Assembly: GCA_045592665.1 (NCBI GenBank)
Contig: JAZNVE010000148.1
Location: forward strand, 1 to 62,282
From: Acutalibacteraceae bacterium
GTDB taxonomy: Bacteria; Bacillota; Clostridia; Oscillospirales; Acutalibacteraceae
Length of the DNA stretch: 62,282 nt
Reading direction: 5' to 3'
Shown here: positions 12,761-43,406 of the stretch, one piece after another
Numbering within the stretch: the stretch's first letter is position 1
Layout of the letters: the number at the start of each line of letters is the position of its first letter
Program-made: the position numbers and the translations under genes
The notes under the pieces: generated by a model
Database searches by the model: none
What the model saw: the letters and a program-made list of their open reading frames with translations, nothing else
Told to the model about the DNA's origin: nothing

Positions 12761-12763
12761 TGA

Positions 12764-15962: not shown

Positions 15963-15980
15963 TACTCTCGCAACATACAG

Positions 15981-16030
15981 TTTTTTATAAAAAACATCTT
16001 CGCAAGGAAAAATCACCTTGCGAAGATGTT
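15981..16030 (-). terminator. intrinsic terminator ending module 1
   Basis: Perfect 15-bp stem aacatcttcgcaagg / ccttgcgaagatgtt (15993-16030), followed by a T-run on the minus strand. Confidence 0.7.
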
Positions 16031-16047
16031 TTATTATTAATATAAGT

Positions 16048-16362: not shown

Positions 16363-16380
16363 AATTTTTGTCCTTTCTGC

Positions 16381-16806: not shown

Positions 16807-16822
16807 TCAATTTCCACCTCTT

Positions 16823-18805: not shown

Positions 18806-18823
18806 AACTTCCCTCGCTGAAAA

Positions 18824-19093: not shown

Positions 19094-19106
19094 ATTATTT
19101 CATCCT

Positions 19107-24733: not shown

Positions 24734-24988
24734 TTACTCGGTAAAGTTAATTACGCTTCCGTTACGAATACCGTATTCCTTAAGCGTTTTATTACCACGA
24801 AGTAATGCTATGGGATTTTCCGCTTTAAGATAGCAATTCTTAACATCCGCTGTATCAATACCTAACTGATATGCCTGATTCAAAGCAATTGTAAGGTCAT
24901 TTCCCGAAATATCAAGGGGCACCTCTAAATCCACCGAAAAACCTCTGTTTAAAATATTGAAAATAATAATCGCTGTTTCTTTAGCCAT
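24734..24988 (-). CDS. esaB: YukD/EsaB-like ubiquitin-fold protein
   Basis: 84 aa, immediately upstream of essC. RBS GGGGGGA. Beta-grasp-like pattern ending KTLKEYGIRNGSVINF. Confidence 0.75.
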   Translation of the reverse strand: MAKETAIIIFNILNRGFSVDLEVPLDISGNDLTIALNQAYQLGIDTADVKNCYLKAENPIALLRGNKTLKEYGIRNGSVINFTE

Positions 24989-26102: not shown

Positions 26103-27038
26103 TTAATCAATAACAAATTGGAAATCACTGTTTGCCAAACGAATTATATCGCCGTTTTTAATATAATATGGTTTGTTGGGCTCTAATTTTGATTTGTTTA
26201 TATATGTACCGTTTGCACTCTTAAGGTCAGTAAGTGCATATTTGCTTCTATATTTATCTATACGACAATGAACCTTACTTACCATACCGTTAAAAGAAAC
26301 TACTCCGTCCACGGCAGATGAATTTCTGCCGATAAGGAAGCTGTCCTTATTTATAACAAACTCCGTGTGTGTGGGGGCATTCATCGCCACAAGTCTTGCC
26401 GTCTGGTCCAGTATTGATTTTCTGATCGAGCCCGAGGAGGTCTTTTTATAATCAGTATTGCCTGTATATCCGGTTTTACCGTTAGCCATACCGTTGTAAA
26501 CGTCCTCTAAGGATTTTCTTCCGTCCGACAAGTCGGATTGCAATTTGAAAAGATTAGGAGTAGAAAAGCTCGGGAAAGCCGAAATGGTTTTTATCAACGT
26601 TGTTCTCAGTTCACTTTCAAATGAAGCATAATCCTCAAACATACCCTTTTCAACAGGAACATAAACAAGATTAACCTTGTATGTATTGGCATCTACGAAA
26701 ATATGCTCAAAAGAAATATCGATATTTTCACAGCTTAAAAAACCGTTATTTTTTACCGCAAGTATTGCACCGAATAAGTTTGAAACTATAGTCATAAAAT
26801 TTTCGGGCGAGATATTTGACATCATACTGAGAAGCGGTTTATTGGATTTGACAATATAAAACAGCTGAATTTTGCCGTTGTATTTCATTTTCATACATTT
26901 AAGCAGATTATTGCTGCCCTGACTTTGTAAAACCTTATATTCGGTAGTCAAAAACAAGCTATTATCATTTAACACATATGAAAAATTAGAACCGCAAGCC
27001 ATTTCCTCCAGCAAGCCTTTTTGTACCAATAAATTCAT
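26103..27038 (-). CDS. FHA-domain protein whose N-terminal globular domain is paralogous to that of 37201..39126
   Basis: ATG at 27038, 7 nt after AGGGG. C-terminal FHA with canonical GR...SKVH...NG (FLIGRNSS...MVSKVHCRI...SANGTYIN). The N-domain ...FLSCENIDISFEHIFVDANTYKVNLVYVP aligns with ...LSIDKLLLDFRYVFINETSWEVQLAYTP. Confidence 0.8.
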   Translation of the reverse strand: MNLLVQKGLLEEMACGSNFSYVLNDNSLFLTTEYKVLQSQGSNNLLKCMKMKYNGKIQLFYIVKSNKPLLSMMSNISPENFMTIVSNLFGAILAVKNNGFLSCENIDISFEHIFVDANTYKVNLVYVPVEKGMFEDYASFESELRTTLIKTISAFPSFSTPNLFKLQSDLSDGRKSLEDVYNGMANGKTGYTGNTDYKKTSSGSIRKSILDQTARLVAMNAPTHTEFVINKDSFLIGRNSSAVDGVVSFNGMVSKVHCRIDKYRSKYALTDLKSANGTYINKSKLEPNKPYYIKNGDIIRLANSDFQFVID

Positions 27039-27116
27039 AAGCATACCCCTACATATATTTTGTTTATCTCAAGTGAAGGCGCTGTCAGTGCCCTCAGTTC
27101 AAATAAACCATACTCT

Positions 27117-27140
27117 CCGGTGCAGGTTACCCTGCACCGG
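27117..27140 (-). terminator. perfect 10-bp hairpin after the giant gene (attenuator or RNA-stability element)
   Basis: ccggtgcagg-ttac-cctgcaccgg. The downstream minus-strand sequence AGAGTATGGTTTATTTG is only moderately T-rich. Confidence 0.4.
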
Positions 27141-27161
27141 AAAGCTTTAGTTAATTAAGTT

Positions 27162-30100: not shown

Positions 30101-33100
30101 TAGGTGCGTTGAAATACTTATAAACGATTTCATCGCTGAGTCCCAATGTAAGAACCTCAGCAATTACAGGCCACAAGGATTCTTCGTACTCAATTACCGG
30201 TGCTGTAGGAGCAGTTGTATCAATAATGAATTCTTCGCTGTTTTTCTCACCACTGTTCTTAGCAAGATCTGTGTATTGGAATTTTATGTTTTTGTAATTG
30301 GCATCCGGAAGAACACCGTTTTCACCATAAGTAAGTGTGCATTCATATTTATTGTTTCCTACGGATTTCCAATTTTCAATATCTGTGATGTAGTTATTTA
30401 ACTTATCAACAGCCACAATATTTTCTTTAATATCTTTTGCTTCAACTGTTGCAACAAAGCTTGCAGGGTCAAAGTTAACCTCTGTAACTGTCAAGGTTAC
30501 AGCGTAATCATCGCAAGGCTCGCCGTCATGTTTTTTGTTTTCATTGTATTCAAAAGATATAACGGGGTCTGTTACGTCGATAACCATTTCGTCAGAAACG
30601 AATTTAGCAACTTCTTTTTCTACACCGTCTTCAATGATTTTTACGGTTTCAACACCGTTACCTTCCATCTGGTTTGTTGATTTATCAACATAATATGCTT
30701 CAACTGTATAAACGCCCTGATTCTCTTCAGTTGAGGGAACTGTTACAGTGTAAATGTCGTAACCGTCATCGTCATCGTCATCGTCAAGTCTTTCATATTT
30801 AACGGTTGCTTTAGCAAACTCTGCACCATCTTTAAATACTTTGATGCTGCCGTTTTCTTCAAAACCGTTTGTTTCTTTAACCTTCACCTTATAAACAAGG
30901 GGAGTTGTTTCGTTGAAGTAGTATGTCTTAGGTGTTGTCTCATCATCAGGAACAACTTTCACGGGATTCAGGTATTCAACAGCCAGTTTAGGTGAAATGT
31001 AGTCAATAATAACGGTATCGTTACCCTTTTTCTTTGATACGTTACCGGCGCGGTCATAAACCGTCAAAGAAACATTTCCGTCAACTGCGTCACCTTTTTT
31101 CACAGTGATTTCGGCAGTTGCTGTTGCGCTCTTGCCGTCATCAAGGCTCTGGAAGTTTTCTACAGGAATTTCTTTTTCGTCATATTCACAAACAAAGCGA
31201 TCAATTCCCGATAATGTATCAGTTGCTTTAAAGGTAACCGTAACAGTATCTCTGTAGAACAATGTTTTTATTGCATCACCAACGCTGTCGATTTCGGTTG
31301 AATAATCAATTTCAAGTGCAGTAGGAACAGTTCTGTCCACCTTCAAATCCTGCTCAGCACCATTAAGGTTGATTTTAAGGTCAACGGGACCGCAGATATA
31401 TCCTGCATTGTCACAAAGATAGACTGTTCTCTTAGTGATTCCTTCATCACCGAATTTGACGGTATTTTTGAAGGCTGTTGCAATATTGTTGCCATCCTTG
31501 ATTATTGTTGTAGCTCTGTACAGCGGGTCAGGATTGCTGTCATTGCCGTATTTTACACCCTTTGCAACGGTATATCCCGTTTTCGGTGTAACAATAATTT
31601 CGTCATTAATCCATCCGTATTTGGTAATGGGGAACGATAAGCTGACAGGAGCTTCGGGTGTATCAGCAAAACGCAACTGAATTTCATAGGTTGCGGAATC
31701 CTTACCGCTTAATTTACCATCGGATTTTTTTGCAGTTACCACTGCATTAATAACACCGTTTGTTTCGGAACGATTAAGCGCTACTACAAGAGCGTTGTAA
31801 TCGCTTACTTTAATTTCGCCTGTAACAGAATCACAATAAACTCCGCCGACTTCATACTCTTTTCCGTTTTCTCTGATTCCTTTTATGCTGTATGTAACAT
31901 TGGAATCGTCATCTGCAACGGTAATTTTTGACTGACGGTTTGAAATAAGGTTATTGTCCTTGTTAAGAACATATACCACCTTATCGGTGTTCTCAAATTC
32001 AACGAAGGAAACATCGTAATCCTTTGTTGTCTTTGCTTTTACAGTAATGGTATATTCGATTTCAGCTTCATGGTAATCTGCTGTTGCAGCGATAGATGCC
32101 TTTACCTTGTATGTACCGGGAACACTTGTTCTGAAGGTTCCTGCATCGTCTATTGTTGCATCACTGCTGTCAACACTATAAACAATTTTTTCGTCCTTTG
32201 TTTTATTCTCTGCTGTTGCACCGAAATCAGTAACGAACTTAACCTGAACCTTACCGTCGGTAATCGAAACTGCAGGAGTCATACTTACAGAGCTTGAGCC
32301 TGCAACAAATTTGTTGAATTCAAGTTTTCTGTCAGCTGTGGAAATCATAGCTGTAACTGTTTTTTCGGTTTCCTTATAGTTATCGTCATCAAGCTTAACC
32401 TTAACGTAAACCGGATAACTGCCAGCATTCTTTATCTGGGGTACTTCCGCACTCCAGTTTGTTCCGTCCTGGCTGTAAGAAACACTTTCAAGCTTCTTAC
32501 CCTGCAGTGCTTCAACCTGTACTGCAGGATGTGAAGCTGCATCATATGCTCCGCTGTAAGGAGTAATGCTTACAACACCGTCATTTAACTCTGCAGGGGT
32601 GATTTTTGTATTGAAAACCTTATCTATGCGTGACAAGCCTTCAAATGAAGATTCACCTACAACCCTTACCGCATATTCACCTACATTGGTTCTTTTGGGG
32701 ATTGTTGTTGTTTTTTCATCACCTACATAGAACTCAAAGCTATAACCGTAGTATTTTGTAAGACCTTCGCAATTAGTGCCCTTAAGAAGCTCCTGAGGCT
32801 CACCGTTAAATACGCTTTCTTTTCCTTTTTCAGTAAAATACAAGTCTGTTATTTTTGCTTCCGTATCTTTAACAAAATCAACGTAACCGTTTCTTTTTAC
32901 GGTAACCTTTACTTTGTACTTACCGGGTATTGAAATCTGAGGAACTTTATCGGTTGCTTCGCCACCGTCAAGCTGATAAAGAACTGTGTCACCTTCAGCT
33001 GTGCCCTGTACGCTGACTGCATCAAATTTCTTGGCTTTTCCTGTTTCTTTGTCGGGCTTGCACTGTGTATTAAGAGCAACAACAGTAATACCGGTGATAA

Positions 33101-33494
33101 CCTTAGCAGATATAGTAACCTCTATATCTTCGTTATCACTTGTAATATTTTTTTCGATGCTTTTGCTCTCGTAACCGTCCTTTGTAACGGAACCGCTGAT
33201 TTTCAAGCCATCCTTATAATCTGCCTTAGCAAGAACCTCGGCAGAGCCGTTTGCATTTGTAGTGACCTTATCATTTTTTATCTCTACATCTGCACTATCG
33301 GTAATTGTATACGATACCTCTGCACCGCTTACAGGGTTACCTTCGCCGTCTTTTACGGTTACGGTAACAGCTTCGGGATATTCCGTGGTTGCCGCTGACA
33401 CAGGGACAGCGGAAACGGGAACCATACCGAACACAAGTAACATCGTAAGTGCTACTGCTAAGATTCTTTTTGTAGCATTACTCATCTTACTCAT
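27162..33494 (-). CDS. 2110-aa cell-surface protein with many Ig-like repeats and a C-terminal TM anchor
   Basis: ATGA overlap with the upstream gene; RBS AAGGGGAGA. Signal peptide ...VPVSAVPVSA. At least 9 domain boundaries of the form (I/V)D.T.P.i.v.Y. A D7 run. C-terminal TM AAALIIILILL followed by KKRKKKDEK. No LPXTG. Confidence 0.9.
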   Translation of the reverse strand: MSKMSNATKRILAVALTMLLVFGMVPVSAVPVSAATTEYPEAVTVTVKDGEGNPVSGAEVSYTITDSADVEIKNDKVTTNANGSAEVLAKADYKDGLKISGSVTKDGYESKSIEKNITSDNEDIEVTISAKVITGITVVALNTQCKPDKETGKAKKFDAVSVQGTAEGDTVLYQLDGGEATDKVPQISIPGKYKVKVTVKRNGYVDFVKDTEAKITDLYFTEKGKESVFNGEPQELLKGTNCEGLTKYYGYSFEFYVGDEKTTTIPKRTNVGEYAVRVVGESSFEGLSRIDKVFNTKITPAELNDGVVSITPYSGAYDAASHPAVQVEALQGKKLESVSYSQDGTNWSAEVPQIKNAGSYPVYVKVKLDDDNYKETEKTVTAMISTADRKLEFNKFVAGSSSVSMTPAVSITDGKVQVKFVTDFGATAENKTKDEKIVYSVDSSDATIDDAGTFRTSVPGTYKVKASIAATADYHEAEIEYTITVKAKTTKDYDVSFVEFENTDKVVYVLNKDNNLISNRQSKITVADDDSNVTYSIKGIRENGKEYEVGGVYCDSVTGEIKVSDYNALVVALNRSETNGVINAVVTAKKSDGKLSGKDSATYEIQLRFADTPEAPVSLSFPITKYGWINDEIIVTPKTGYTVAKGVKYGNDSNPDPLYRATTIIKDGNNIATAFKNTVKFGDEGITKRTVYLCDNAGYICGPVDLKINLNGAEQDLKVDRTVPTALEIDYSTEIDSVGDAIKTLFYRDTVTVTFKATDTLSGIDRFVCEYDEKEIPVENFQSLDDGKSATATAEITVKKGDAVDGNVSLTVYDRAGNVSKKKGNDTVIIDYISPKLAVEYLNPVKVVPDDETTPKTYYFNETTPLVYKVKVKETNGFEENGSIKVFKDGAEFAKATVKYERLDDDDDDDGYDIYTVTVPSTEENQGVYTVEAYYVDKSTNQMEGNGVETVKIIEDGVEKEVAKFVSDEMVIDVTDPVISFEYNENKKHDGEPCDDYAVTLTVTEVNFDPASFVATVEAKDIKENIVAVDKLNNYITDIENWKSVGNNKYECTLTYGENGVLPDANYKNIKFQYTDLAKNSGEKNSEEFIIDTTAPTAPVIEYEESLWPVIAEVLTLGLSDEIVYKYFNAPTTITLTSTDATWGVESFVLTYNRQKGESKSNVEKLYIDNIEATPSETDNDVFTAQVTLPKEEADQLRGSMTAYAIDKHGIKSESVTDDGTVIVVDDIAPEVSVAYSKAQPKVTEDNKAYYNNDIVGTITVEEANFYAEDVVLSVTRDGVEIEAPAIEWSGTVDADGDKEDVYTGTFTLPALADHSTDGDYIVKVSYTDRSTKEAEAYESDILVIDTTAPVINVAYSNTTPENKLPDPYIEGAEREYFRGQQVATITITEHNFFKDEVDLSSILEQDVSGNPVAQTRIESDWVSDGDVHTMTITYPGNANYTFDIDYADLADNAAADYTKDYFTVDNTLPVIVKAEQKNDVASTFINNITFGYFGEKAQVEVTVTDDISFANIVEATYEQADGTSSVNKTDEKQTAKAEKIEILNEGKTAKTTFVMPKGILEKGNNMNGSVKFVATDRAGNKSNGNVDGKDITGVIVDNITPKAKIELSKPYTTENKISYYDGKITGTITVTEANFDNPEEFKLSYSKDGAKGVRIPLKWTHKSVNTHIATFTLTQDGDYILTATYKDRSKNEMATYKSNQLTIDTKINAPVITFQGDSNGGLGFNDEVIPGVKFEDDNYKSYQITLTRTRYDEKNIDVKDQFIGNRVAINANGGSGTFNTFEKIRDNDGVYTLTVKMTDKVDHSSTTSRTFVVNRFGSVYVYNDALIDLINDRYTKEVAEDLVITEYNANKLKESTLKVDITRDGRPVDKAIASTAPAKNSGWYEYAHTINRENFNSEGLYKIAVSSTDEVNNNSENKEDKNTLDKKFTEIKDVLWFKVDKTLPSITSFTITEEASNKKDYKGDYDGEYTEIKAENANVEFTVYDAIGIAKVEVIVDGITVEVFEGKELGDDINNFTGKFKLSEEDDKQKVVIKVTDLSGRVLDTANIKEAKDSIPESFTGSMLVSSNFFVRFWNNQPVFWGVVGGTVGAAALIIILILLKKRKKKDEK

Positions 33495-33970
33495 AAATTT
33501 TCTCCCCTTTTATTTTTCTTTTTTATTTGATTATAAATGTTTCCGTTTAATATACTGTGTAAACTAAAAGAAACAATCATTAAAAATAACAAAATATAAA
33601 CCACATAAGAATTACTGTACCTCGTGAACATAAGTACAATAAATGAAATTGTGCTTGCTAAAAAAACTCCATCCGCAACAGAGGCACGTATACTTCTGAA
33701 AAATCTGAGAACCCCGGGAATTCTTTTTACCGGTATCTCATCCCCGTGCTCCTGCTTGTGCCATTTTTTGTATTTAACCAAAGTAAGCACCAAAAATAAC
33801 AAGCTGAACAGGAAGCCTACCCAGAATACAGTGCCCACAACTACAACGGGTGTGTTAGTCTGCGCTTGTGCCGAAAAGGGCATCGCAGGAAAGGTTGCTC
33901 CTAAAAGAAACGTAAAAAACATATACAACCCCATCATAAGACGTATTGTTTGTTTTTTGACCTTCTTCAT
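33491..33970 (-). CDS. small polytopic membrane protein
   Basis: ATGA overlaps at both ends; RBS GAGGTGA. 159 aa with about 4 hydrophobic helices. Confidence 0.75.
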   Translation of the reverse strand: MKKVKKQTIRLMMGLYMFFTFLLGATFPAMPFSAQAQTNTPVVVVGTVFWVGFLFSLLFLVLTLVKYKKWHKQEHGDEIPVKRIPGVLRFFRSIRASVADGVFLASTISFIVLMFTRYSNSYVVYILLFLMIVSFSLHSILNGNIYNQIKKKNKRGENL

Positions 33971-34665
33971 TCAATCACCTCAGCGGTGTGTATTAACATT
34001 ACATCATCCAGTGACGATAACTCTTTTTTAGGAACGAAGCTGGGCTTTTCAACGGGCTCTTCACCACCGAGGAGAGCCGTTTCATTAAGTGCTGTTGTTT
34101 CCTCTCCGGTTATATCGGTATCCTGCGTAAATAAGGGTGCCGTTTCATTAAGAGGTGCTGTTTCGTTAAGTGCCGCTGTTTCCTCACCTGTTGAAGGCTC
34201 CCTTGAGAATATGGGAACATTGAGAGGTGCGGTTTCATTGAGAGGCGCTGTTGCGTTATCTTCAAAAGCGGGTCTTCTTTCAGTACTTTCAAGCAACGCT
34301 GTTTCCTGTGAATTAATCTTTTGAGGACTGTTTTCTCCAAGAACACCGGTCTGGGCTTTCCTTGAAGCTTTTCTTGCTGCCCTTTGCTCTTTTGTATTAG
34401 AGGGCTTCGGAGCAGCTTTGGGTTGTTCTATTGTAGCCGTAACCTTACCTCTGTTCTGGTTAACGGGACTTGAGCCGTGTGACTTTTTGCCGGACTTCTC
34501 ATTGAACTCACGCATCTGAGCAATGGATTTACGAGCTGTTCTACCGGACAAATCACCAATAACACTCGGGATTTTAAATTTAACAAAAAGGATTGCTGCA
34601 ATAAGAAACGCGATTCCCGCAATAACGAAGGAGATTATTGAAATTACTGATAATACTTCTGCCAT
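33967..34665 (-). CDS. N-terminally anchored membrane protein with degenerate ETAPLN hexapeptide repeats
   Basis: RBS AAGGAGGAG. TM VISIISFVIAGIAFLIAAILFV, a basic segment, then about 8 copies of (E)ETA(P/A/L)L(N) across about aa 118-200. Confidence 0.75.
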   Translation of the reverse strand: MAEVLSVISIISFVIAGIAFLIAAILFVKFKIPSVIGDLSGRTARKSIAQMREFNEKSGKKSHGSSPVNQNRGKVTATIEQPKAAPKPSNTKEQRAARKASRKAQTGVLGENSPQKINSQETALLESTERRPAFEDNATAPLNETAPLNVPIFSREPSTGEETAALNETAPLNETAPLFTQDTDITGEETTALNETALLGGEEPVEKPSFVPKKELSSLDDVMLIHTAEVIE

Positions 34666-34668: not shown

Positions 34669-36402
34669 TTACTTCTCCTCCTTATAATCATACTCACGAT
34701 TTATTTTAGCGAGATAATCTTCATAATTATCGATGATTTTTTGTTTCATATCTTTTGTGAATTTATTAGAGCCACCATCTTTGGTGTCATTAGCCATTTC
34801 GTAAACCCTGTTTAACAAGGCTGTAAGTGTCTCTTTTTCAATTTCAACACCGCTGAACTTTGACTTACAGCTATCCAACAAACAGAAAACAGCGTAATAA
34901 TAACACAATTTATCATAATTACCTATTGTTTCATTATCGTCTATAACATCAAGTGTTTTATTTACACCGACAAACAATTTTTTACATTCTTCTGTCGTAA
35001 GATCATATCTTGTATCCTCGGGGATATATCGTTTTTGGAATACGCATATTTCCTTGAAGCTTTTTTCGTAATCAGAAGGCACGTAATTTTCAATAGCGGT
35101 ATTTCTGTCCAGATATACTATGGCTTTATCACATTTTTCAATTGTCCCGTCGTTTATTTCTCCCTCTGAATTCACAGAAGTATAATAGAAATAACAAAGT
35201 GTTGCCATACGGAAATTAATATCTGCATAGGTTTTCGGATCAGCCTTAAGAAGCTCGGCACTATTGTTTTTCAGAATATTACCCTTTTCATCTTTTGAGC
35301 CACCGTGATAAATTGCCTCAAAATCTGCAAGATCCGAAGAGGTGAAGCCCTTGCCCTCCAAAACCTTATCCTCATAATATTCAACCAATTTCACATATGC
35401 AGCTGCTCTTTCGGGATATAAAGTAACGGCTTTTTTATAAAATGCTATGTCATCTGTATGATTTACATACGCATCATACGTATTTTCATTAATCGCTTTT
35501 GCACCCAATGCCGTACCAATACCAGAAAATGCCATTATTATACTGAGAACAAAGGGGATAACCGTTCCTATAACCTTTCTTTTCTGTATTTTTTTGTATC
35601 CCGATGTAATAAGGTCGGGGTGTTCAAGGTCATATATAAGGTCTGCACAGCTCTGATACCTGTTTTCTTCCGCAGGCTGAACGCACTTATCAATAATGAG
35701 CTCAATACCCTCCGAAAGGTTTGGATTAATCTGTCTTACGGGCACATATCCGTCACCCATTCTGGGGTCAACGCCCGTAAGAAGGTTGTGCATTGTCATA
35801 CCCAGGGAGTAAATATCGGATCTGGGTGTTGTCTGTCCGTTATATGCTTCGGGAGGTGCGAAACCTCTTGTACCGAGAACCTTTGTATCTGCAAGATTTT
35901 GCTCTTTATACTCACGGGCAATACCGAAGTCAATAATCTTAATATTACCCTCGGGCTTAAGCATAATGTTTGCGGGCTTCATATCGCGGTAAACGATAGG
36001 TCTCGGCTTCTGTGAATGAAGGTATGATAAGGCATCACAAATCTGCTTTGCCCATTCAATAACCTTTTCTTCATCCTGAACGCCGTACTCTTTTAAAATT
36101 TTGTCAAGAGATTCGCCTTCAATATAGTCCATTACAACGTAAATTGTAATTCCGTTGTCAATAATATCAACTATTCGCGGTAAAGCAGGGTGATCAAGAC
36201 GCTTCATAAGGTTTGCTTCAGCAAGTAAGCTGTTTACAACAATTTCATCATTTGCGCCTGTACCCTTTTTTCTGATTTCCTTAACTGCCCACTGTTTATT
36301 GAGATGGCTGTCCATGGCAAGATATACCGTAGACATACCGCCTCGACCAATTTCCTTAAGTATCTCGTACTTACCGTCAATTATTGTTCCTATCTCTGTC
36401 AT
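34669..36402 (-). CDS. Hanks-type Ser/Thr protein kinase with TM and an extracytoplasmic helical domain
   Basis: RBS GAGGTGAGGGG. Motifs GRGGMSTVY, WAVKEI, YRDMKPANIM, IDFGIA and GTRGFAPPE. TM VIGTVIPFVLSIIMAFSGIGTAL. About 270-aa C-terminal domain with no PASTA pattern seen. Confidence 0.9.
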   Translation of the reverse strand: MTEIGTIIDGKYEILKEIGRGGMSTVYLAMDSHLNKQWAVKEIRKKGTGANDEIVVNSLLAEANLMKRLDHPALPRIVDIIDNGITIYVVMDYIEGESLDKILKEYGVQDEEKVIEWAKQICDALSYLHSQKPRPIVYRDMKPANIMLKPEGNIKIIDFGIAREYKEQNLADTKVLGTRGFAPPEAYNGQTTPRSDIYSLGMTMHNLLTGVDPRMGDGYVPVRQINPNLSEGIELIIDKCVQPAEENRYQSCADLIYDLEHPDLITSGYKKIQKRKVIGTVIPFVLSIIMAFSGIGTALGAKAINENTYDAYVNHTDDIAFYKKAVTLYPERAAAYVKLVEYYEDKVLEGKGFTSSDLADFEAIYHGGSKDEKGNILKNNSAELLKADPKTYADINFRMATLCYFYYTSVNSEGEINDGTIEKCDKAIVYLDRNTAIENYVPSDYEKSFKEICVFQKRYIPEDTRYDLTTEECKKLFVGVNKTLDVIDDNETIGNYDKLCYYYAVFCLLDSCKSKFSGVEIEKETLTALLNRVYEMANDTKDGGSNKFTKDMKQKIIDNYEDYLAKINREYDYKEEK

Positions 36403-36414
36403 TTACCCCTCACC

Positions 36415-37185
36415 TCACGACATTGTTTTTATAAGCAAAACCGAGATGTTGTCCCTCTCACCACGAGATTTTACCAACTCAATCACGTGTTTTGCATTGC
36501 TGTGCATAGATTGTTTATGGGGAAGCACGCTTGCATCAAAATACTGGGCTATTTCCTGGGGTGAAACCTGATGTCTGAATCCATCCGAACAAAGAAGGTA
36601 CACGCCGTTCTGTGCTTCGCTTATAATAACCTCGGGTTCAACATCACGTGAAGCACCTACACACTGAAGAAGAAGGTTACGACGGCTGTCAACTCTCGCT
36701 TGCTCCGGAGTCATATTACCACGCCTTACTTCTCTTTCTACAAAGCTCTGGTCTATTGTCAGCTGTTTCAAGCCCTTATTTATGTAATACGCTCTGGTAT
36801 CACCAACGTGCACAATAAGATATTTACCCTCTGCAAAAAGCATACCCGTAAATGTTGTACCCAGATTCACACCCAGATTAAGACCAAACTGAGATATTTT
36901 AGCATTAAGCTGTTTGAGCATATGAGTCCACTTACCGGCAACAACCTCTAAATTAAGGTGCTGAAGCTCATAGGGAAGTTCTTCATCAAACCACCTTGAA
37001 AATTCCCTTATGACCGTCGCACTGGCAAGTTCACCCTTGGCAAGTCCACCCATACCGTCACATACAACGGCAAGGAGCACCTGCTTATTGTCTTTATCAT
37101 AAACAGCCTGTTTTATTAAGAGACTGTCTTGATTTGTTTTTTTCACAATACCTACATCGGTATCTGCAGTAGCTATATAATGCAT
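36415..37185 (-). CDS. PP2C-family Ser/Thr phosphatase
   Basis: RBS GGGAGGT. Motifs NQDS, LLAVVCDGMGG, LLCSDGF and RGERDNISVLL. Confidence 0.9.
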   Translation of the reverse strand: MHYIATADTDVGIVKKTNQDSLLIKQAVYDKDNKQVLLAVVCDGMGGLAKGELASATVIREFSRWFDEELPYELQHLNLEVVAGKWTHMLKQLNAKISQFGLNLGVNLGTTFTGMLFAEGKYLIVHVGDTRAYYINKGLKQLTIDQSFVEREVRRGNMTPEQARVDSRRNLLLQCVGASRDVEPEVIISEAQNGVYLLCSDGFRHQVSPQEIAQYFDASVLPHKQSMHSNAKHVIELVKSRGERDNISVLLIKTMS

Positions 37186-37200
37186 CTTTTACCTCCCTGT

Positions 37201-39126
37201 TTATACTTTAAACAAAAAGTCTTCATTAGCAAGCGTAATGGTATCGCCGTCAAATATTTCTATTTCACAATTGGGCATTATCATTCTGCCGTTAATATAA
37301 GTCTTATTTTTCGAGTTAAGGTCTGTAATGAAATACCTGTTATCACGTATAATTATGTCCGCATGACTTCTGCTGATAACATTGCTGTTGCTTACAAAAT
37401 AGTCAACATAACTACGTTCCTTACCAATTCTGAAAACAGGCTTTGATATTTTTACAACATCACCGTTGAAAATACGCTTAAGAGTAGGATATTTAATATA
37501 TTCCTTTTCAGGCGCAGAACCATTACTATATGTGTCCATAGGTGCAAAAGGCTCATCTGTAAGAAGGCCCGTTTTATCCTCATCAAATCCACCTGACATC
37601 ATGACTGACTGAGGCGCCGGTGTCGGCTGTGCCACGGGCTGAGGTGCAGGCTTAACCATCGGTTGCGGTGCAGGTGCCGGCTGTGCCACAGGCTGAGGCG
37701 CGGGCTTAACCACCGGTTGCGGTGCAGGTGCCGGCTGTGCCACGGGCTGAGGTACGGGCTTAACCACCGGTTGCGGTGCAGGTGCCGGCTGTGCCACGGG
37801 CTGAGGTGCAGGCTTAACCACCGGTTGCGGTGCAGGTGCCGGCTGTGCCACGGGCTGAGGTGCAGGCTTAACCATCGGTTGCGGTGCAGGTGCCGGCTGT
37901 GCCACGGGCTGAGGCACGGGCTTAACCATCGGTTGCGGTGCAGGTGCACCCTTTGATATCTTCATTACTTCATCAGAAGACAGCTCATATGCCGGTTTTA
38001 CTGCAGCTGCAGAAGCCGGAACAGGCTGTGCCATAGGTTTAGCCACAGGCTGTGGTTGCGGTGCAGGTGTCGGCTGCACCTTGGGTTTAACCGCGGGCTG
38101 TGGTTGTGGTGCAGGCTTAACCACCGGTTGCGGTGCAGGTTGCACTACAGGTGCGACTTCGGGTTTGAAAACAAATCCGTCATCCGATTTTTCTGCTACT
38201 TTTTCGATGTCAGAAGCATCTTCTTCTATCAATAATGAAGTATCGTCCAATTCAGCATTAAACTCAACCGATTGAGCCACAGAGCTTCCCTGAGCTTGCT
38301 CAGCATCTTCTATTAGCAGGGCAGTGTTGTCCTCTGCCTCATCGCGCTCCGATATGGGCATTGACTGTGCCACGGGGTTCTGAACCTTAGTCGGTTGTTC
38401 TTCCCCTACGGAGTTATCATCCAGCATATCGGCAATATTAATTTCAGGAACCTGACTTAAGTTGACCGCTTTCGCAATCGGTTCGGGTTTTACGGAAGGT
38501 GCCGTTTTACCGACTTGTTCCACACTTTCATTCTGATTATTGATTACAACATTTCGTGAAGGGTGGGATTTATTTACCGCATCAACAACTTTAGCATCCT
38601 CATTTAAGATGTAACTCTCAATACGGGTGTAATCAAACCCATCCACAGACTTAAGAAAAGCCAAAAAGCGTTGCGCGTATTCCATATCTGCTTCGCGAAA
38701 AGGCTTTGTCATTGCGGAAATCGCGGACATAAAGCTTATCAAATTATTGGCATTAGCTTTAGCAGCACATGGTGTATAAGCTAACTGAACCTCCCACGAT
38801 GTTTCGTTTATAAAAACATATCTGAAATCAAGCAACAATTTATCAATAGAAAGATTAAGCGATTTTATATCACGGGCAATTGCCGCAAGCTGTTGCATAA
38901 TAAGGAAATACTGCACCTTGGACATAGGCTGTTTAAGTCTTTCACCCAACGGAACTCCATTCATACAAACAAACTGCACCTGATCATCCTGAACAGAAGA
39001 ACCCAGGATACCCTTTATAGGTGTTTTTGATACATACAATGCTTCACCCTTAACAAATCCGTCAGCAGAAGTAAAGCCTATATTAATCACCTTTGCATTA
39101 CCGTTATTTAATACTTTAATCTCCAT
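37201..39126 (-). CDS. FHA-domain protein: N-terminal globular domain, acidic linker, Pro-rich tandem repeats, C-terminal FHA
   Basis: RBS TAGGAGGT; first gene after the 39195-39223 promoter. Six 18-aa PAPAPQP(V/M)VKP(A/V)PQPVAQ repeats. FHA FRIGKERS...ISRSHADII...SKNKTYING. Confidence 0.85.
   Translation of the reverse strand: MEIKVLNNGNAKVINIGFTSADGFVKGEALYVSKTPIKGILGSSVQDDQVQFVCMNGVPLGERLKQPMSKVQYFLIMQQLAAIARDIKSLNLSIDKLLLDFRYVFINETSWEVQLAYTPCAAKANANNLISFMSAISAMTKPFREADMEYAQRFLAFLKSVDGFDYTRIESYILNEDAKVVDAVNKSHPSRNVVINNQNESVEQVGKTAPSVKPEPIAKAVNLSQVPEINIADMLDDNSVGEEQPTKVQNPVAQSMPISERDEAEDNTALLIEDAEQAQGSSVAQSVEFNAELDDTSLLIEEDASDIEKVAEKSDDGFVFKPEVAPVVQPAPQPVVKPAPQPQPAVKPKVQPTPAPQPQPVAKPMAQPVPASAAAVKPAYELSSDEVMKISKGAPAPQPMVKPVPQPVAQPAPAPQPMVKPAPQPVAQPAPAPQPVVKPAPQPVAQPAPAPQPVVKPVPQPVAQPAPAPQPVVKPAPQPVAQPAPAPQPMVKPAPQPVAQPTPAPQSVMMSGGFDEDKTGLLTDEPFAPMDTYSNGSAPEKEYIKYPTLKRIFNGDVVKISKPVFRIGKERSYVDYFVSNSNVISRSHADIIIRDNRYFITDLNSKNKTYINGRMIMPNCEIEIFDGDTITLANEDFLFKV
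37613..37948. repeat. 54-nt tandem repeat, about 6 copies, in-frame in the 37201..39126 gene
   Basis: The motif ggctgtgcc recurs at 37625, 37679, 37733, 37787, 37841 and 37895, exactly 54 nt apart. Degenerate related copies at about 38030-38150. Confidence 0.9.
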
Positions 39127-39194: not shown

Positions 39195-39223
39195 ATTATA
39201 TTCTTTTTAGAAAATTTTGTCAA
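39195..39223 (-). promoter_or_regulatory. consensus sigma-A promoter of the secretion operon (TTGACA-N17-TATAAT)
   Basis: The minus strand reads TTGACA (39223-39218), a 17-nt spacer, then TATAAT (39200-39195). It lies about 70 nt upstream of the 39126 start. Confidence 0.6.
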
Positions 39224-39294: not shown

Positions 39295-39342
39295 GTTTAA
39301 AAAACCGTATCCTCCCACAGAACAGTGTTCTATGAGAGGATA
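39295..39342 (-). terminator. intrinsic terminator ending the glnA / kinase-fusion transcription unit
   Basis: Long imperfect hairpin tatcctc...agaaca / tgttct...gaggata (39308-39342), followed by TTTTTT on the minus strand. Confidence 0.75.
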
Positions 39343-39353: not shown

Positions 39354-41459
39354 TTATATACTGTTTTTCAGCTCTTCTGCCAATGCCTCACAGCTGCCGT
39401 ATCTGGCAGAAGGGCTTATGGCAACGCATTTGTCGATTATTTTTTCAAGCTCAACGGATAATAACGGATTTATCTGTCTTATGGGTCTGTATTCATATTT
39501 TTTACTGTTCGGTCCGACACCGGTTAAAAGGTGGTGTAAAGTCATACCTAAAGCGTAAATATCGGTTCTGGCATCCGATTGGCGTCTTCCGAATTGCTCC
39601 GGCGCGGCGTAACCCTTTGTACCGAAACAAGCAGTATCACTCTTTTTAAGGGGATCATAGCAACGCATAATACCGAAATCAATCAAAGTGATTTGTCCGT
39701 TTTCTCTGAGCATAACATTGGCCGGCTTAAGGTCTCTGAATATTCTTGGAGGGTTAAGACCGTGAAGATAACCCAAAACATCGCATAATTGCAAGCCCCA
39801 TTCGATTACAGCTTCCGGAGGTTGCGCAGATTCTCTGTTAACAATCGCTTCCAGAGTTTCGCCCGTAATGTAATCCTCAATAATGCAAAGATAATCCTTA
39901 GTTTCTACAATTTCGTAAATCCGCGGAATCATAGGATGCTCAAGCTCTTTAACCGCTGAGGTTTCTTTAAAAACCATATCCCTTACTATCGGGCTGTATT
40001 TTTCGCTGTTTTTAAAACACATTTTTGCAGCAAAAAGACCACCGTTAGACACATCCTCAACAAGATACACCCTGAATGTTCCACCCTTGCCCAACATACG
40101 CAAAACCCGATATGAATTGTCTATTATGGTGCCTACTATATTTTTTTCGTTCAGACTTTTTCGCTTTTCGCATTTTTTCTGTTGCTCGTCTTTATAGAAT
40201 ACCAATTTTTCAATATGGGCGAAGTCTATTACATCATTAGCACAAAGCTTGTGCACTTCATTTTTTTCAATTTTTTTCGAATTAATCCAAATACCGTTTG
40301 TAGACAAATCTTTTATGTACCAAGTGTAGTCATCATAATAAAAGATTGCGTGGCTTCTTGAAATCTTGGGACTGTTGATAACAATATCGTTATCGCTCGT
40401 ACGACCTACCGTAACCTTACCCTTCTTAAAAACCGACTTGTCGTTTTTTTCTGAAGTGAGTACAAGGATATTTGAAAAGAGTCTTTCCGTATTGTGAGCT
40501 TCAACCGGAGTTTCAAACACTCCGGACCTCGTTTCAATCTTGAATCTGCCACATTTATGACAACACAATTGATTTTCGGTTTGATTTTTTCCCACAACAG
40601 AAAACTCATGAGCGTTATTTTTACAATCCAGATATTTGTTGCCTCTTTCATCGGCAATTTCTCTGACTGCAAGCACAGCAAGACTTTTCATCCCGCTTAC
40701 GTTTAAATTAATACCGTCAAAGGTATCAATAAGAATTTTAAATTTGTTGAAATCTATTAGCCTACATCCGTTTTTAGCAACACATTCCCTGATTGCACAA
40801 TTATATTTTTCAATGTCATTATCCTTATACTGTTTGAAAAAATCGAACTTTGGGTTCTGGGACATACAGGTTGCAAATAAGGTGCAACACCAAATTTCTG
40901 CTTTTGGATATCTGCTTTTAATTTTGTTCAACATAGCATCGTACGCATAGGAAAATGTTGATTCATCCTCAACATACCCATACATATTCTTACCGATTTC
41001 TTCATTATAATAGCTTTCCACACTACCCGAAACCGGAACTGAGCCCAACCAATCACTTGTACCCATACACACAAGTATTACATCAGGTAAAGCTTTACCT
41101 GAGTGTAAAGCCGATGTTCTTTCCGTTGAACAGCCCGACGGGAATAAATCTGAAACCTCGGGAAGCTGTGTTACCCGACTGTATGCATATGAATTATTTA
41201 CAAGAAGCTCTCCACCGAAATAGTTTATGACTCTTTGCCACCAAGTACGGTTTTTTTCGGTTATACCCGCTTTTTCACAATTCTCACCCTGGTAAAATAT
41301 TTTATAACCCGGTGGATTAAACCCTGAAAAGGTGCTTATGGAGTCGCCTAAAACAGAAAACTTTTTACCGTAGTAACGGTTTGCTTTTCGCCATTCCGAA
41401 AATTGGACATTACCTATACCTGCCAGTCTTTCGCTTGTCTTATCATTGTATAAAGCCAC
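39354..41459 (-). CDS. fusion protein: SGNH/GDSL-like domain, Cys-rich segment, FHA domain, C-terminal Ser/Thr kinase
   Basis: GTG start 8 nt after AAAGGAGG. SGNH blocks GDSIS and GTSDW, with DGINLN where DGxHxN is expected. Cys-rich CCHKCG. FHA VTVGRTSD...ISRSHAIF...STNGIWIN. Kinase GKGGTF, FAAKM, FRDLKPANVM, IDFGIM and GTKGYAAPE. Confidence 0.85.
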   Translation of the reverse strand: MALYNDKTSERLAGIGNVQFSEWRKANRYYGKKFSVLGDSISTFSGFNPPGYKIFYQGENCEKAGITEKNRTWWQRVINYFGGELLVNNSYAYSRVTQLPEVSDLFPSGCSTERTSALHSGKALPDVILVCMGTSDWLGSVPVSGSVESYYNEEIGKNMYGYVEDESTFSYAYDAMLNKIKSRYPKAEIWCCTLFATCMSQNPKFDFFKQYKDNDIEKYNCAIRECVAKNGCRLIDFNKFKILIDTFDGINLNVSGMKSLAVLAVREIADERGNKYLDCKNNAHEFSVVGKNQTENQLCCHKCGRFKIETRSGVFETPVEAHNTERLFSNILVLTSEKNDKSVFKKGKVTVGRTSDNDIVINSPKISRSHAIFYYDDYTWYIKDLSTNGIWINSKKIEKNEVHKLCANDVIDFAHIEKLVFYKDEQQKKCEKRKSLNEKNIVGTIIDNSYRVLRMLGKGGTFRVYLVEDVSNGGLFAAKMCFKNSEKYSPIVRDMVFKETSAVKELEHPMIPRIYEIVETKDYLCIIEDYITGETLEAIVNRESAQPPEAVIEWGLQLCDVLGYLHGLNPPRIFRDLKPANVMLRENGQITLIDFGIMRCYDPLKKSDTACFGTKGYAAPEQFGRRQSDARTDIYALGMTLHHLLTGVGPNSKKYEYRPIRQINPLLSVELEKIIDKCVAISPSARYGSCEALAEELKNSI

Positions 41460-41502: not shown

Positions 41503-41982
41503 TCAACAATGAATATATTGAGGTAAAACAGATTCCGTAACCCAGAAAATCGGTGGATTATGAGATGCATTTTCATAAAACACATAACCATCAGCCAACA
41601 TTTTTTCCGAATCGACAACTATCACACAAGGGTCTTTTAAGCCCCTGCTTATCCCCTCCGCATATTTATCGCAATCAGTTAAAAATACCATTTCTGTTTT
41701 TTTATTTAAAAGTCCGTGCTTACAGATGCTTTCAAGATTTTTTTGCGAAGTTATATGGTAGAGACTCGGAGGAACGCAAACATTTTTGACTTCCACATAA
41801 TTCAACGGAGCATAGACTCTCCCCAAAACAAAAAATGCTCTTAAGTTAAGCCTAAGCTGTTTTTTGTAAAACTTACTTGATGGTTTTGCCTTATAAAGAG
41901 TGATACTGTTTTTTAAAGCAACACTGACCTCTCCACCCGGCAATCTGTTTTTCATTCCCTCTTTTATACGTTTAGCAAACAT
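41503..41982 (-). CDS. KptA/Tpt1 C-terminal-lobe-like (ADP-ribosyltransferase fold) protein, divergent
   Basis: TAATG overlap with the glnA stop. PPSLYHITSQKNLESICKHGLL...DPCVIVVDSEKMLADGYVFYEN...IFWVTESVLPQYI aligns by eye with the E. coli KptA C-terminal half. The N-terminal lobe and the Arg/His catalytic residues are not evident. Confidence 0.45.
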   Translation of the reverse strand: MFAKRIKEGMKNRLPGGEVSVALKNSITLYKAKPSSKFYKKQLRLNLRAFFVLGRVYAPLNYVEVKNVCVPPSLYHITSQKNLESICKHGLLNKKTEMVFLTDCDKYAEGISRGLKDPCVIVVDSEKMLADGYVFYENASHNPPIFWVTESVLPQYIHC

Positions 41983-43406
41983 TAAAGATTATAGTATTTT
42001 TCAAACTCAACGGGATGAGGTACCTTTGAGATTTCGCTGCACTCGGCACGTTTTGTTTTAATGAAGTTCTTAATAAGTTCTTCGGGGAATACGCCACCTG
42101 CGGTAAGGTAATCGTGGTCTGCCTCAAGAGCATCGAGAGCTGCCTCAAGTGAAGTGGGAAGACCTTTAAGCTTTGCTTTTTCCTCATCGGGAAGATTGAA
42201 AAGGTTAAAGTCATAGGGTCCCCAACCGTTTGCATGGGGGTCGATTTTATTCTTAATACCGTCAAGACCTGCCATAAGAATTGCTGCGTAGCAGAAATAG
42301 GGGTTACAGGTTGCGTCGGGGTTACGAAGCTCGAAACGACGTTTCTCGGGAGCCTTTGCATAAGCAGGAATACGGATAACCGCACTTCTGTTTGATGTTG
42401 CGTAGCCAACGGTTACGGGTGCTTCGAAACCGGGAATAAGACGTTTAAAGGAGTTTGTGCTTGGGTTTGTAATAGCACAAAGTGAAGAAATATGCTTCAA
42501 AAGACCGCCTATAAAGTAATGTGCAGTTTCGCTGAGATTTGAGTAGCCGTTATCATCGGAGAATACGGGCTCACCATCTTTAAGAAGAAGCATATGAACG
42601 TGCATACCGCTACCTGCTTCACCATAAATGGGCTTGGGCATAAATGTAGCCGTTTTGCCGTATTTAAGGGCAGTGTTGCGGATAATGTATTTAATCCACA
42701 TTGTGTTATCTGCCATCTTTGACATCTGACCGAGTTGAGGCTCAATCTCAAACTGACCTGATGCGGCAACCTCGGGATGATGATAGTTGATTTCTATACC
42801 TGCATCCGCCATATGTAAACACATTTCGCTACGGCATTCGTATGTAACGTCAAAAGGCTTTGCTATATGGTAATTTTTCTGTTTAGGAACAATAACACCG
42901 TTACCTGCAACAGAGCTATTCCAGTATGACTGCTGTGCATCAACATCCGCACTGATATTGTCGGGTGAAACATTCCAACCCACCTGGTCGAAAAGATAAA
43001 ATTCAAATTCGGGAAGAATGAGCATTGTATCTGCAATACCGCTATCCTTCATATACTGCTCTGCAGCAAGAACAATATTTCTGGGGTATTGAGCAAGGGG
43101 TCTGTTGGCAGGTGAATCAATAATCATAGCATTACCCGTCATAGACAATGTGGGAATATCACAGAAGGGGTCAACAATGGCTGTGTCAGGGTCAGGAATA
43201 AAGACCATGTCGCTTTTCTCAACAACGGCATAACCGTAGTTTGAAGCATCAAAACCAATACCGCTCTTCATAGTATCCTCAGAAAAATTCTCTGCGGGAA
43301 TTGTAACGTGACGGTACTGACCGTTGATGTCAACCATCTTAAAGTCCACCATTTTAATATCTTTTTCTTTAATAAGTTCAATGATTTTCTTGATTTTTTC
43401 TTGCAT
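41982..43406 (-). CDS. glnA: glutamine synthetase, type I
   Basis: 474 aa. Characteristic blocks DMVFIPDP, GSGMHVHMLL, NSFKRLIPGFEAP and NRSAVIRIP. Confidence 0.95.
   Translation of the reverse strand: MQEKIKKIIELIKEKDIKMVDFKMVDINGQYRHVTIPAENFSEDTMKSGIGFDASNYGYAVVEKSDMVFIPDPDTAIVDPFCDIPTLSMTGNAMIIDSPANRPLAQYPRNIVLAAEQYMKDSGIADTMLILPEFEFYLFDQVGWNVSPDNISADVDAQQSYWNSSVAGNGVIVPKQKNYHIAKPFDVTYECRSEMCLHMADAGIEINYHHPEVAASGQFEIEPQLGQMSKMADNTMWIKYIIRNTALKYGKTATFMPKPIYGEAGSGMHVHMLLLKDGEPVFSDDNGYSNLSETAHYFIGGLLKHISSLCAITNPSTNSFKRLIPGFEAPVTVGYATSNRSAVIRIPAYAKAPEKRRFELRNPDATCNPYFCYAAILMAGLDGIKNKIDPHANGWGPYDFNLFNLPDEEKAKLKGLPTSLEAALDALEADHDYLTAGGVFPEELIKNFIKTKRAECSEISKVPHPVEFEKYYNL

Follow-up and report, generated by a model that had tools for sequence, protein, structure and literature searches.

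Threonine-only motif arrays and a receptor kinase–phosphatase–FHA module in a widespread type VII secretion locus of Clostridia

Introduction

Toxin delivery by type VII secretion systems (T7SS) shapes the competition among Gram-positive bacteria, and at stake here is the question of what activates the non-canonical systems found in gut commensals. In this study, we analyze a T7SS locus on a contig of an Acutalibacteraceae bacterium (JAZNVE010000148.1, assembly GCA_045592665.1), the whole of which (62,282 nucleotides, nt) is referred to as the window in the following, and we focus on a Hanks-type Ser/Thr kinase, a PP2C phosphatase and FHA-domain proteins encoded within this locus.

The closest described systems were defined by Garrett, Higginson and Palmer (microLife 2024, PMC11217815), who surveyed EssC neighbourhoods and delineated the subtypes T7SSc–j. 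The parts reported for these subtypes include membrane kinases (TsxD), PPM phosphatases (TsxF), DUF6382–FHA proteins (TsxJ), unstructured proteins with a single transmembrane (TM) segment (TsxH), giant proteins with immunoglobulin (Ig)-like domains (TsxI) and a TadZ-like ATPase (TsfV), and the authors proposed a threonine-phosphorylation control similar to that of type VI secretion systems (T6SS), e.g. for T7SSd, T7SSe and T7SSj (PMC11217815). A sequence-only reading of positions 34,669 to 39,126 of the window had put forward a kinase/phosphatase/FHA switch as one with no known description for the T7SSb; since the survey had already published this idea, T6SS analogy included, the inference amounts to a rediscovery. 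Our literature searches retrieved no experimental test of such phospho-control in any T7SS variant of Bacillota.

Three further systems are relevant for comparison. In the T6SS of Agrobacterium, Fha is bound by the membrane protein TssL once the kinase PpkA has phosphorylated the latter (PMC3953482). In Schaalia (Actinomycetota), a kinase/phosphatase pathway encoded in Esx operons (Esr; preprint of September 2026, PMC13622651) was shown experimentally to act on an FHA protein by phosphorylating a Thr of its disordered region. In the T7SSb, the pseudokinase YukC binds the second FHA domain (FHA2) of YukB with the help of YukD, as seen by cryo-electron microscopy (PMC12637312).

What is new in the locus described here is a widespread, uncatalogued arrangement, in which the cluster kinase is decoupled from the FHA competence of the secretion ATPase and which carries arrays of motifs centred exclusively on Thr. 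If these arrays are kinase targets and FHA ligands, the published idea of a phospho-regulated T7SS becomes directly testable, and the arrays would name residues to mutate, peptides for binding experiments and a membrane substrate analogous to TssL of the T6SS.

Results and Discussion

An EssC locus that appears to match none of the described subtypes

All genes of the locus are located on the minus strand. Counted from the promoter, they encode a 641-residue FHA protein, the PP2C phosphatase, the kinase, a 232-residue TM protein, a 159-residue four-TM protein and a 2110-residue Ig-like protein, which are packed with gaps of 3 to 30 nt or overlaps of 4 nt from position 39,126 down to 27,162, followed beyond a gap of 117 nt by a 313-residue DUF6382–FHA protein, a TadZ/ParA-like ATPase, YukD, EssC and a WXG100 protein. 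Three core markers of the T7SSb are present, each scoring above the cut-off of its family, namely an EssC-type FtsK/SpoIIIE ATPase of 1503 residues with two N-terminal FHA-like repeats (20,208–24,719; TIGR03928, 1139 bits vs a cut-off of 778, spanning residues 225–1496), the ubiquitin-like protein YukD/EsaB (24,734–24,988; PF08817, E = 3.5e-8) and the EsxA-like WXG100 protein (19,604–19,897; TIGR03930, 74.5 bits vs 44.9), which is the only canonical WXG100 gene after EssC. None of the open reading frames (ORFs) scanned in the locus or in the window gave a Pfam or NCBIfam match to EssA/YueC, EssB/YukC or EsaA/YueB. Since these components are missing from the window, the locus is not a T7SSb, and the corresponding label, which the sequence-only reading had attached to it, had to be given up.

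The same reading had described the FHA repeats of EssC as degenerate, i.e. without the GR and SxxH residues that bind phosphothreonine (pThr), and this was found both in the window protein, the second repeat of which shows IGAN at the GR position and KNDT at the SxxH position, and in its relatives. We compared 122 family members with 64–68% identity to the window protein. Where GR would be expected, 115 of them carry Ser, Thr, Ala or Val, these four being the most frequent residues and Arg not among them, while no Ser..His pair occurs at the SxxH positions and NG is invariant. The missing GR and SxxH residues characterise the lineage as a whole. The pattern published for TsfC is GR in 0%, SxxH in 0% and NG in 88% of the sequences (PMC11217815). 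Over its first 640 residues, the window EssC scored 161 bits against TsfC and 70–92 bits against TseC, TsjC, TsiC and S. aureus EssC (86–92 bits for TseC and TsjC), whereby the TsxC representatives were transcribed from a supplementary figure, so that reading errors may affect these scores. The identity between the window EssC and TsfC is 24%, which is about equal to that between TsfC and TsjC, ranked as separate subtypes in PMC11217815.

Regarding its overall composition, the locus is similar to T7SSf of Clostridium acetobutylicum (TsfA, B, C, F, J and V) in that the EssC FHA repeats lack GR and SxxH and keep NG, in the order J–TadZ-like ATPase–YukD–EssC, which for T7SSf was derived from the spacing of accessions, and in the presence of a PPM phosphatase and a DUF6382–FHA protein. 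In contrast to T7SSf, which comprises six core components, is reported without a cluster kinase or an Ig-like TsxI and has a TsfJ with two TM helices, the window locus comes with a kinase and with proteins resembling TsxH and TsxI, has a further DUF6382–FHA protein besides J, and its 313-residue J protein carries no TM segment. With T7SSe and T7SSj the locus shares a membrane kinase with a helical outer domain (TPR-like in TsjD), a PPM phosphatase, an Ig-like TsxI and a DUF6382–FHA TsxJ, all of these likenesses being judged from domain architecture; the single-TM unstructured TsxH is shared with T7SSe. However, TseC and TsjC keep GR and SxxH in 98–100% of the sequences, whereas the window EssC lineage does not, and no TadZ-like ATPase is listed for these two subtypes, whereas the window locus has one. 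A zinc-ribbon TsxK was not found in the window locus.

According to Table S1 of PMC11217815, the presence of a kinase goes along with conserved GR and SxxH residues on TsxC. The window lineage breaks this pairing of a kinase with a pThr-competent ATPase, the reading function being seemingly delegated to separate FHA proteins. The EssC proteins of Clostridium folliculivorans (WP_261854120) and C. fungisolvens (WP_183275801) are absent from all TsxC lists of Supplementary Data 5 (PMC11217815), a check that covers these two RefSeq accessions, as proteins of metagenome-assembled genomes (MAGs) carry no WP accessions. The C. folliculivorans EssC is 45% identical to the window EssC and found in the same synteny, and the C. 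fungisolvens EssC belongs to its 90%-identity cluster. Judging from the way in which a kinase is combined with ATPases resembling TsfC and TadZ, and from the two accessions checked, the locus appears to fit none of the published T7SS subtypes.

C. folliculivorans (locus L081; BQXY01000010.1, positions 1–16,774) is a cultured species with the complete, identical gene order and might serve as an experimental model. Its locus encodes PP2C, the kinase, a 176-residue TM protein, a 2354-residue Ig protein, DUF6382–FHA, an AAA_31 ATPase, YukD, a 1503-residue EssC and WXG100, and the EssC, kinase and ATPase proteins of C. fungisolvens share the 90%-identity clusters of L081.

A kinase–phosphatase–FHA module dedicated to the secretion locus

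The receptor-type Hanks Ser/Thr kinase (34,669–36,402, 577 residues; Pfam Pkinase, E = 1e-50) carries the motifs GRGGMS, WAVKE, YRDMKPAN, DFG and APPE, and possesses a single TM-like segment (residues 277–295), with KKIQKRK in front of it and about 280 residues after it. We propose a topology, in which the catalytic domain is cytoplasmic and a helical-repeat domain (residues ~300–577) lies outside the membrane. In an alignment of 77 orthologues and the window protein (n = 78), the residues K41, E62, D140, N145 and D158 are 100% conserved, and the same applies to T173 and T178 of the activation loop. The PP2C/PPM phosphatase (36,415–37,185, 256 residues; Pfam PP2C_2, E = 5e-8; NCBIfam Stp1-type, 168 bits, E = 2e-49), which we propose as the reset enzyme, has kept its metal-binding Asp motifs, and D20, D43, G44, D201 and D245 are 100% conserved (n = 78, again 77 orthologues and the window protein). 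The catalytic motifs, the TM segment and the outer domain of the kinase as well as the intactness of the phosphatase, as claimed by the sequence-only reading, were thus confirmed on the translations and by profile matches. Given the strong matches to hidden Markov models and the conserved catalytic residues, chance is excluded for the kinase, PP2C and FHA assignments.

The outer domain of the kinase (residues 300–577) was modelled as an all-alpha, 12-helix repeat with a predicted local distance difference test score of 91. A fold search against the PDB yielded nothing better than E = 0.1 with TM-scores of at most 0.37, the best matches being designed repeats, TPR and 14-3-3 proteins, and we therefore rejected an assignment to a known sensor fold. 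A phmmer search of 1.84 billion representative sequences returned 30 relatives only; the full-length ones show the same kinase–TM–domain layout, and among these relatives no other context was found that would hint at a ligand.

Full-length relatives of the kinase, which are 46–85% identical including the outer domain, were found in at least 449 species-representative genomes, with hosts among Oscillospiraceae, Acutalibacteraceae, Lachnospiraceae, Clostridium species, Eubacterium ramulus and others. From these genomes we fetched 80 related loci with flanks of up to 10 kb, and the recurring order was FHA–PP2C–kinase–TM protein–giant Ig protein–FHA–TadZ-like ATPase–YukD–EssC. PP2C is the immediate upstream neighbour of the kinase in 76 of 77 loci, and an FHA protein is found upstream of PP2C in 59 of 69, while the small TM protein follows the kinase in 72 of 75 loci and the giant Ig protein is found downstream in all of the 58 loci that are long enough; the genes for J, the TadZ-like ATPase, YukD and EssC come next wherever the 10-kb flank extends to them. 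In all 80 loci, the neighbourhood of the kinase consists of T7SS genes.

These data bear on the explanation that the pair is the general PrkC/PrpC (PknB/Stp) housekeeping pair of the organism, which came to lie beside secretion genes by accident. Indeed, the catalytic domains match Stk1/StkP/PknB and Stp1/PstP best in NCBIfam and the PDB: the closest solved structures of the kinase domain are StkP, Stk1 and PknB, and those of the phosphatase are PstP of Mycobacterium tuberculosis and Stp1 of S. aureus, with PppA of the T6SS being matched too. However, the kinase scores only 219 bits against the PknB_PASTA equivalog NF033483 (cut-off 450), and this match is confined to profile positions 1–267 of 563, i.e. 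to the catalytic part, so that no PASTA domain was found by this profile, while the phosphatase scores 168 bits against the Stp1/IreP equivalog NF033484 (cut-off 230). The outer domain of the kinase is instead an all-helical repeat, and the T7SS neighbourhood persists across Oscillospiraceae, Lachnospiraceae, Clostridium and others. On the grounds of cut-offs, architecture and synteny, which cover the window and the flanks of the related loci, we reject a housekeeping PASTA kinase/Stp pair and consider an accidental placement of the general pair highly improbable. From the synteny, the sub-cut-off equivalog scores and the absence of PASTA we conclude that kinase, PP2C and FHA form a dedicated, conserved part of the secretion locus, in line with the sequence-only reading, which had tied the module to the secretion operon.

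Two paralogous DUF6382–FHA proteins with conserved pThr-binding residues

The 641-residue protein (37,201–39,126; FHA, E = 4e-14) consists of a DUF6382-like domain, a long Pro-rich disordered linker and an FHA domain with the signature IGK / SRSH / NK. The residues G568, S585, R586, H588 and N607 are 100% conserved among 61 orthologues and the window protein (n = 62), and the FHA domain closely resembles that of TseJ (Fig. S4 of PMC11217815). Since hhalign ties the N-terminal domain to DUF6382 (probability 98.5%, E = 3e-15), the locus encodes two paralogous DUF6382–FHA proteins. The second one is the 313-residue protein without a TM segment (26,103–27,044; DUF6382, E = 1e-9; FHA, E = 3e-16), the FHA domain of which is TsfJ/TsjJ-like and carries IGR / SKVH / NG; among 43 homologues, G237, H257 and N276 are invariant and S254 is conserved to more than 90%. 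By their Gly-Arg/Lys, Ser-x-x-His and Asn residues and the beta-sandwich fold, both proteins are predicted to have canonical pThr-binding FHA domains. The pThr-binding signatures that had been noted for these two proteins from the sequence therefore hold, and the residues are conserved in the orthologues.

In GarA and OdhI of Actinobacteria, a Hanks kinase phosphorylates an acidic Thr motif (ETTS), which lies in a disordered segment of the FHA protein and is recognised by the FHA domain. In an AlphaFold2 model of the 313-residue protein, the FHA part superposes on FhaA of M. tuberculosis, GarA and other pThr-binding FHA domains at 1.2–1.5 Å, with 1.3 Å for FhaA and GarA, and the likeness includes OdhI; unlike the locus studied here, GarA has a single motif, acts in metabolic regulation and has no secretion context. 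The model has low confidence over residues 17–62 of DUF6382. FoldSeek matches to kinases were reported for TsfJ (Garrett et al., PMC11217815). When the DUF6382 domain analyzed here was compared for an EssB-like pseudokinase fold, a profile search against PDB sequences gave only spurious matches to interferon-beta, the hhalign probability for a relation to the locus kinase family was 1.5%, and a fold search with the full 313-residue model returned mainly FHA matches.

The linker of the 641-residue protein contains a long, highly regular Pro-rich repeat at residues ~330–510 (PAPQPVVKPAPQPVAQ…), which is missing from most orthologues. Most of these are 340–450 residues long, and linker length as well as motif copy number vary widely among species.

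Arrays of motifs centred on threonine

The 232-residue protein (33,967–34,665), a TsxH-like single-pass membrane protein according to its sequence, is encoded 3 nt past the kinase gene and consists of an N-terminal TM segment (residues 10–28), which is followed by basic residues, and a disordered tail. Because of the basic residues after the TM segment, this tail is probably cytoplasmic. It contains repeats such as QETALLE, NETAPLN (twice), NETAPLF, EETAALN, EETTALN and NETALLG, and a pattern scan returned six matches, namely five of the form E-T-A-x-L-[LNF] and one overlapping ETTALNE. Otherwise, conservation is poor among the positional orthologues, which come from 71 loci. These sequences hold 181 [ED]T..[LI] sites compared to 23.1 ± 4.6 in shuffled sequences, with Leu at T+3 for 36% of the Thr residues (8% background) and Glu at −1 for 25%, whereby the orthologues are related to each other, so that the shuffle statistics overstate independence and do not represent probabilities.

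The same motif was found in the linker of the 641-residue protein, which contains the three acidic-T-x-L-L sites DNTALLI, DDTSLLI and DKTGLLT. In this protein family (61 orthologues and the window protein), T-x-L-L motifs with the consensus E-A-T-G-L-L are present in 1 to 10 copies in 60 of the 62 members. The density of the strict pattern [DE]xT[GAS]LL amounts to 6.5 and 8.2 per 1000 residues in the families of the TM protein and the 641-residue protein, in comparison to 0.02 per 1000 residues in 890 other ORFs of the same loci, which places the arrays at about 300 times the local background. Of 242 occurrences of [DE]-x-?-[GAS]-L-L, 240 have Thr at the central position and none has Ser, even though the two residues are equally abundant. 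Phosphoserine is not bound by FHA domains, which recognise pThr, and many of them favour a hydrophobic side chain at position +3. A motif that discriminates against Ser in this manner is what one would expect of sites bound by FHA domains.

Within the window locus, the only further matches in cytoplasmic proteins are ADTKVLG of the kinase activation loop, a site with the invariant form D-T-x-V-L-G-T, and a single, isolated KETAIII close to the start of YukD, at its N-terminus. A conserved Thr motif of the 313-residue J family was sought in 43 homologues and rejected, as the DQTARL of the window protein is restricted to close relatives; since the family has no such motif, the J protein looks like a pure reader. 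In the described subtypes, GTTVL, ETELL and STQLI are located just upstream of the FHA domains of TseJ, TsfJ and TsjJ, respectively (Fig. S4 of PMC11217815), and the acidic-T-x-L-L motif may be general to TsxJ proteins. Literature searches for the lineage or the motif returned nothing beyond PMC11217815.

That the copy number varies within a region that otherwise diverges points to selection acting on the motif as such. Judging from these sequence patterns, the E-T-x-L-L arrays are probable docking sites, which would be written by the kinase and read by FHA domains.

A proposed phospho-switch for T7SS assembly

Taken together, we lean, with slightly better than even confidence, towards the interpretation that this part of the window is the regulatory and scaffolding half of a T7SS locus of a gut-dwelling member of the Clostridia, in which a receptor kinase, Thr arrays, FHA readers and a PP2C phosphatase switch the assembly of the machine. 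All steps past the domain assignments, including who phosphorylates whom and the binding of FHA domains to the motifs, are what we infer from the comparisons above. The kinase would sense an envelope signal or a signal from a neighbour, autophosphorylate its activation loop and phosphorylate the Thr residues of the E-T-x-L-L arrays on the tail of the 232-residue membrane protein and on the linker of the 641-residue protein. The FHA domains of both DUF6382–FHA proteins, and perhaps that of a GDSL–FHA–kinase fusion encoded further upstream (see below), would then bind the pT-x-x-L sites. In this scheme, the 641-residue protein would be a kinase substrate and at the same time a pThr reader and scaffold, while the 232-residue protein would represent a membrane-anchored multi-site substrate and FHA docking platform. 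The resulting multivalent, membrane-proximal assembly would recruit or activate the TadZ-like ATPase, YukD and EssC, and PP2C would erase the marks and reset the system. The FHA repeats of EssC, unable to read pThr, would probably serve for docking independently of phosphorylation, with the kinase domain as a possible partner, and this would be comparable to the contact between the YukC pseudokinase and FHA2 of YukB in the T7SSb (PMC12637312).

The proposed architecture resembles that of the T6SS (PpkA/PppA/Fha1 of Pseudomonas; PpkA–TssL–Fha of Agrobacterium) with respect to the membrane Hanks kinase, the PP2C phosphatase, FHA and a phosphorylated membrane recruiter, the latter being a proposal in our case, and the Agrobacterium pathway is the nearest precedent for the mechanism. 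Unlike there, the secretion machine is unrelated, no T6SS genes are present, and the FHA proteins score only 22–32 bits against TIGR03354 (TagH/Fha; cut-off 120); moreover, the outer domain of the window kinase is a helical repeat, and the acceptor would be a motif array and not a single Thr. With the Esr pathway of Actinomycetales the locus shares a kinase/phosphatase pair embedded in T7SS operons; however, the MoxR ATPase, vWA, transglutaminase and beta-propeller surface sensor of Esr are not found in the window, and the two belong to different phyla and different T7SS types.

Several observations weigh against a switch of this kind, in addition to the relatedness of the orthologues mentioned above. 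The interpretation is built on comparative sequence evidence for this lineage, and the FHA domain of the 641-residue type carries GK and not GR. Using a relaxed pattern, the motif is absent from 10 of 71 orthologues of the TM protein and from 5 of 68 orthologues of the FHA protein, and TsfJ of C. acetobutylicum has the similar ETELL even though its cluster encodes no kinase. It is also conceivable that the motifs have binding partners different from FHA domains, or that a different kinase phosphorylates them. Finally, a strong terminator-like hairpin with a 15-bp stem including 9 GC pairs (27,112–27,145), located in the 117-nt gap between the genes of the Ig protein and the 313-residue protein, may separate the genes of the kinase block from those of J, TadZ, YukD and EssC, or may be an attenuator.

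Since the window contains no EssB, EsaA or EssA, the kinase might alternatively be mainly a structural core component, i.e. the EssB/YukC counterpart, the cytoplasmic kinase fold of which docks on the degenerate FHA2 of EssC with the aid of YukD, its catalysis being secondary or autoregulatory. It shares the topology of EssB (a kinase fold, one TM segment and a helical outer domain), as was noted likewise for TscD (PMC11217815), and it is encoded in a locus with YukD and an EssC whose FHA repeats have no pThr motifs, as in the T7SSb, where the pseudokinase binds FHA2 (PMC9600267; PMC12637312). Unlike EssB, the window kinase has every catalytic residue and a partner phosphatase, shows no similarity to EssB and has no YukC match in Pfam, and its outer domain is unlike any solved structure, that of EssB included. 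The invariance of the catalytic residues and of both activation-loop Thr residues (n = 78) and the adjacent PP2C (76 of 77 loci) would be needless for a purely structural role, and the Thr-only arrays require a writer. We therefore consider a mainly structural role unlikely, though it is compatible with the phospho-switch that we favour.

The extracytoplasmic, sensor-like domain of the kinase would also suit a sensor of threats or envelope stress with a transcriptional output in place of a control of machine assembly, and precedents exist in Esr1 of Schaalia (PMC13622651) and in the control of the E. faecalis T7SS by IreK (cited by PMC11217815). However, Pfam and NCBIfam scans detected no DNA-binding domain in the proteins of the module, and the FHA proteins carry DUF6382 and not zinc-finger or helix-turn-helix outputs. 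In addition, the motif-bearing substrate is membrane-anchored and the readers are encoded between structural T7SS genes, which leaves a transcriptional output rather improbable in our view.

Extending the assembly switch, we put forward, tentatively and with some doubt, that the locus could represent a further subtype, not catalogued among T7SSa–j and very frequent in Clostridia of the gut. A phospho-switchable scaffold would replace EssB, EsaA and EssA, and the phosphorylation-independent pseudokinase–FHA contact of the T7SSb would be a degenerate relic of a switch of this type. In such a subtype, stand-alone FHA proteins reading the arrays would nucleate the EssC machine and possibly position it via the TadZ-like ATPase.

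Remaining genes of the locus

The TadZ/ParA/MinD-like ATPase (25,019–26,077, 352 residues; AAA_31, E = 6e-13, with weak MinD/ParA matches) is TsfV-like, and sequence features suggest that its N-terminal region is a receiver-like domain. An origin of this gene from a Tad pilus was rejected, since the window contains no other Tad genes. The giant surface protein (27,162–33,494, 2110 residues) is TsxI-like and, as read from the termini of its sequence, starts with a Sec signal peptide and ends with a C-terminal TM segment and a basic tail; its Ig-like repeats match Big_1 below the Pfam cut-off (32.9 bits vs 34.9, E = 7e-8). The 159-residue four-TM membrane protein (33,491–33,970), the gene of which overlaps both neighbouring frames by 4 nt, is weakly conserved in related loci and has no named counterpart in the published T7SS variants.

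Transcription signals and flanking genes

The gene of the 641-residue protein is preceded by a sigma-70-type consensus promoter (TTGACA-17 nt-TATAAT; 39,195–39,223), which matches in 12 of 12 positions and represents the sole perfect pattern match in 19 kb, and AGGAGG is located 7 nt ahead of its ATG at 39,126. A terminator-like hairpin (39,308–39,342) precedes this promoter and closes the upstream gene, which encodes a 701-residue fusion of a GDSL-type hydrolase, an FHA domain and a Hanks kinase without a TM segment (39,354–41,459). The FHA domain of the fusion is canonical (GR/SRSH/NG), its kinase appears active and the hairpin lies past its stop codon. The fusion is separately transcribed and may be a second writer and reader; full-length orthologues were found in just the two closest related loci (L002 and L003). 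The span from 34,669 to 39,126 noted earlier thus leaves out three elements of the module, namely the 232-residue TM protein, the promoter and the FHA–kinase fusion.

Glutamine synthetase, encoded at 41,982–43,406, is 99% identical to its counterpart in L002 (3538–5000; Oscillospiraceae MAG SIG569), whereas the locus kinases of the same pair are 84% and the giant Ig proteins 55% identical, from which we conclude that the secretion locus diverges much faster than its housekeeping neighbour.

Downstream of EssC, a toxin island extends over positions 6,700–19,535 on the minus strand. It encodes a YwqH-like protein (19,107–19,535), a helical protein of 89 residues (18,824–19,093), an LXG–WHH nuclease toxin (16,823–18,805), a SUKH immunity protein (16,381–16,806) and, after several ORFs without a Pfam match, an Mbeg1-like/lipase protein at its end (6,700–8,394). 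At the far end of the island, an ORF of 243 residues on the plus strand (3,398–4,129) is kinase-like with HRDIKPEN, APE and DLS instead of DFG, has no clear Gly-loop or VAIK, and its Pfam match covers profile positions 51–212 only; it is followed by a gene for an OmpA-family protein of 642 residues on the same strand (4,241–6,169).

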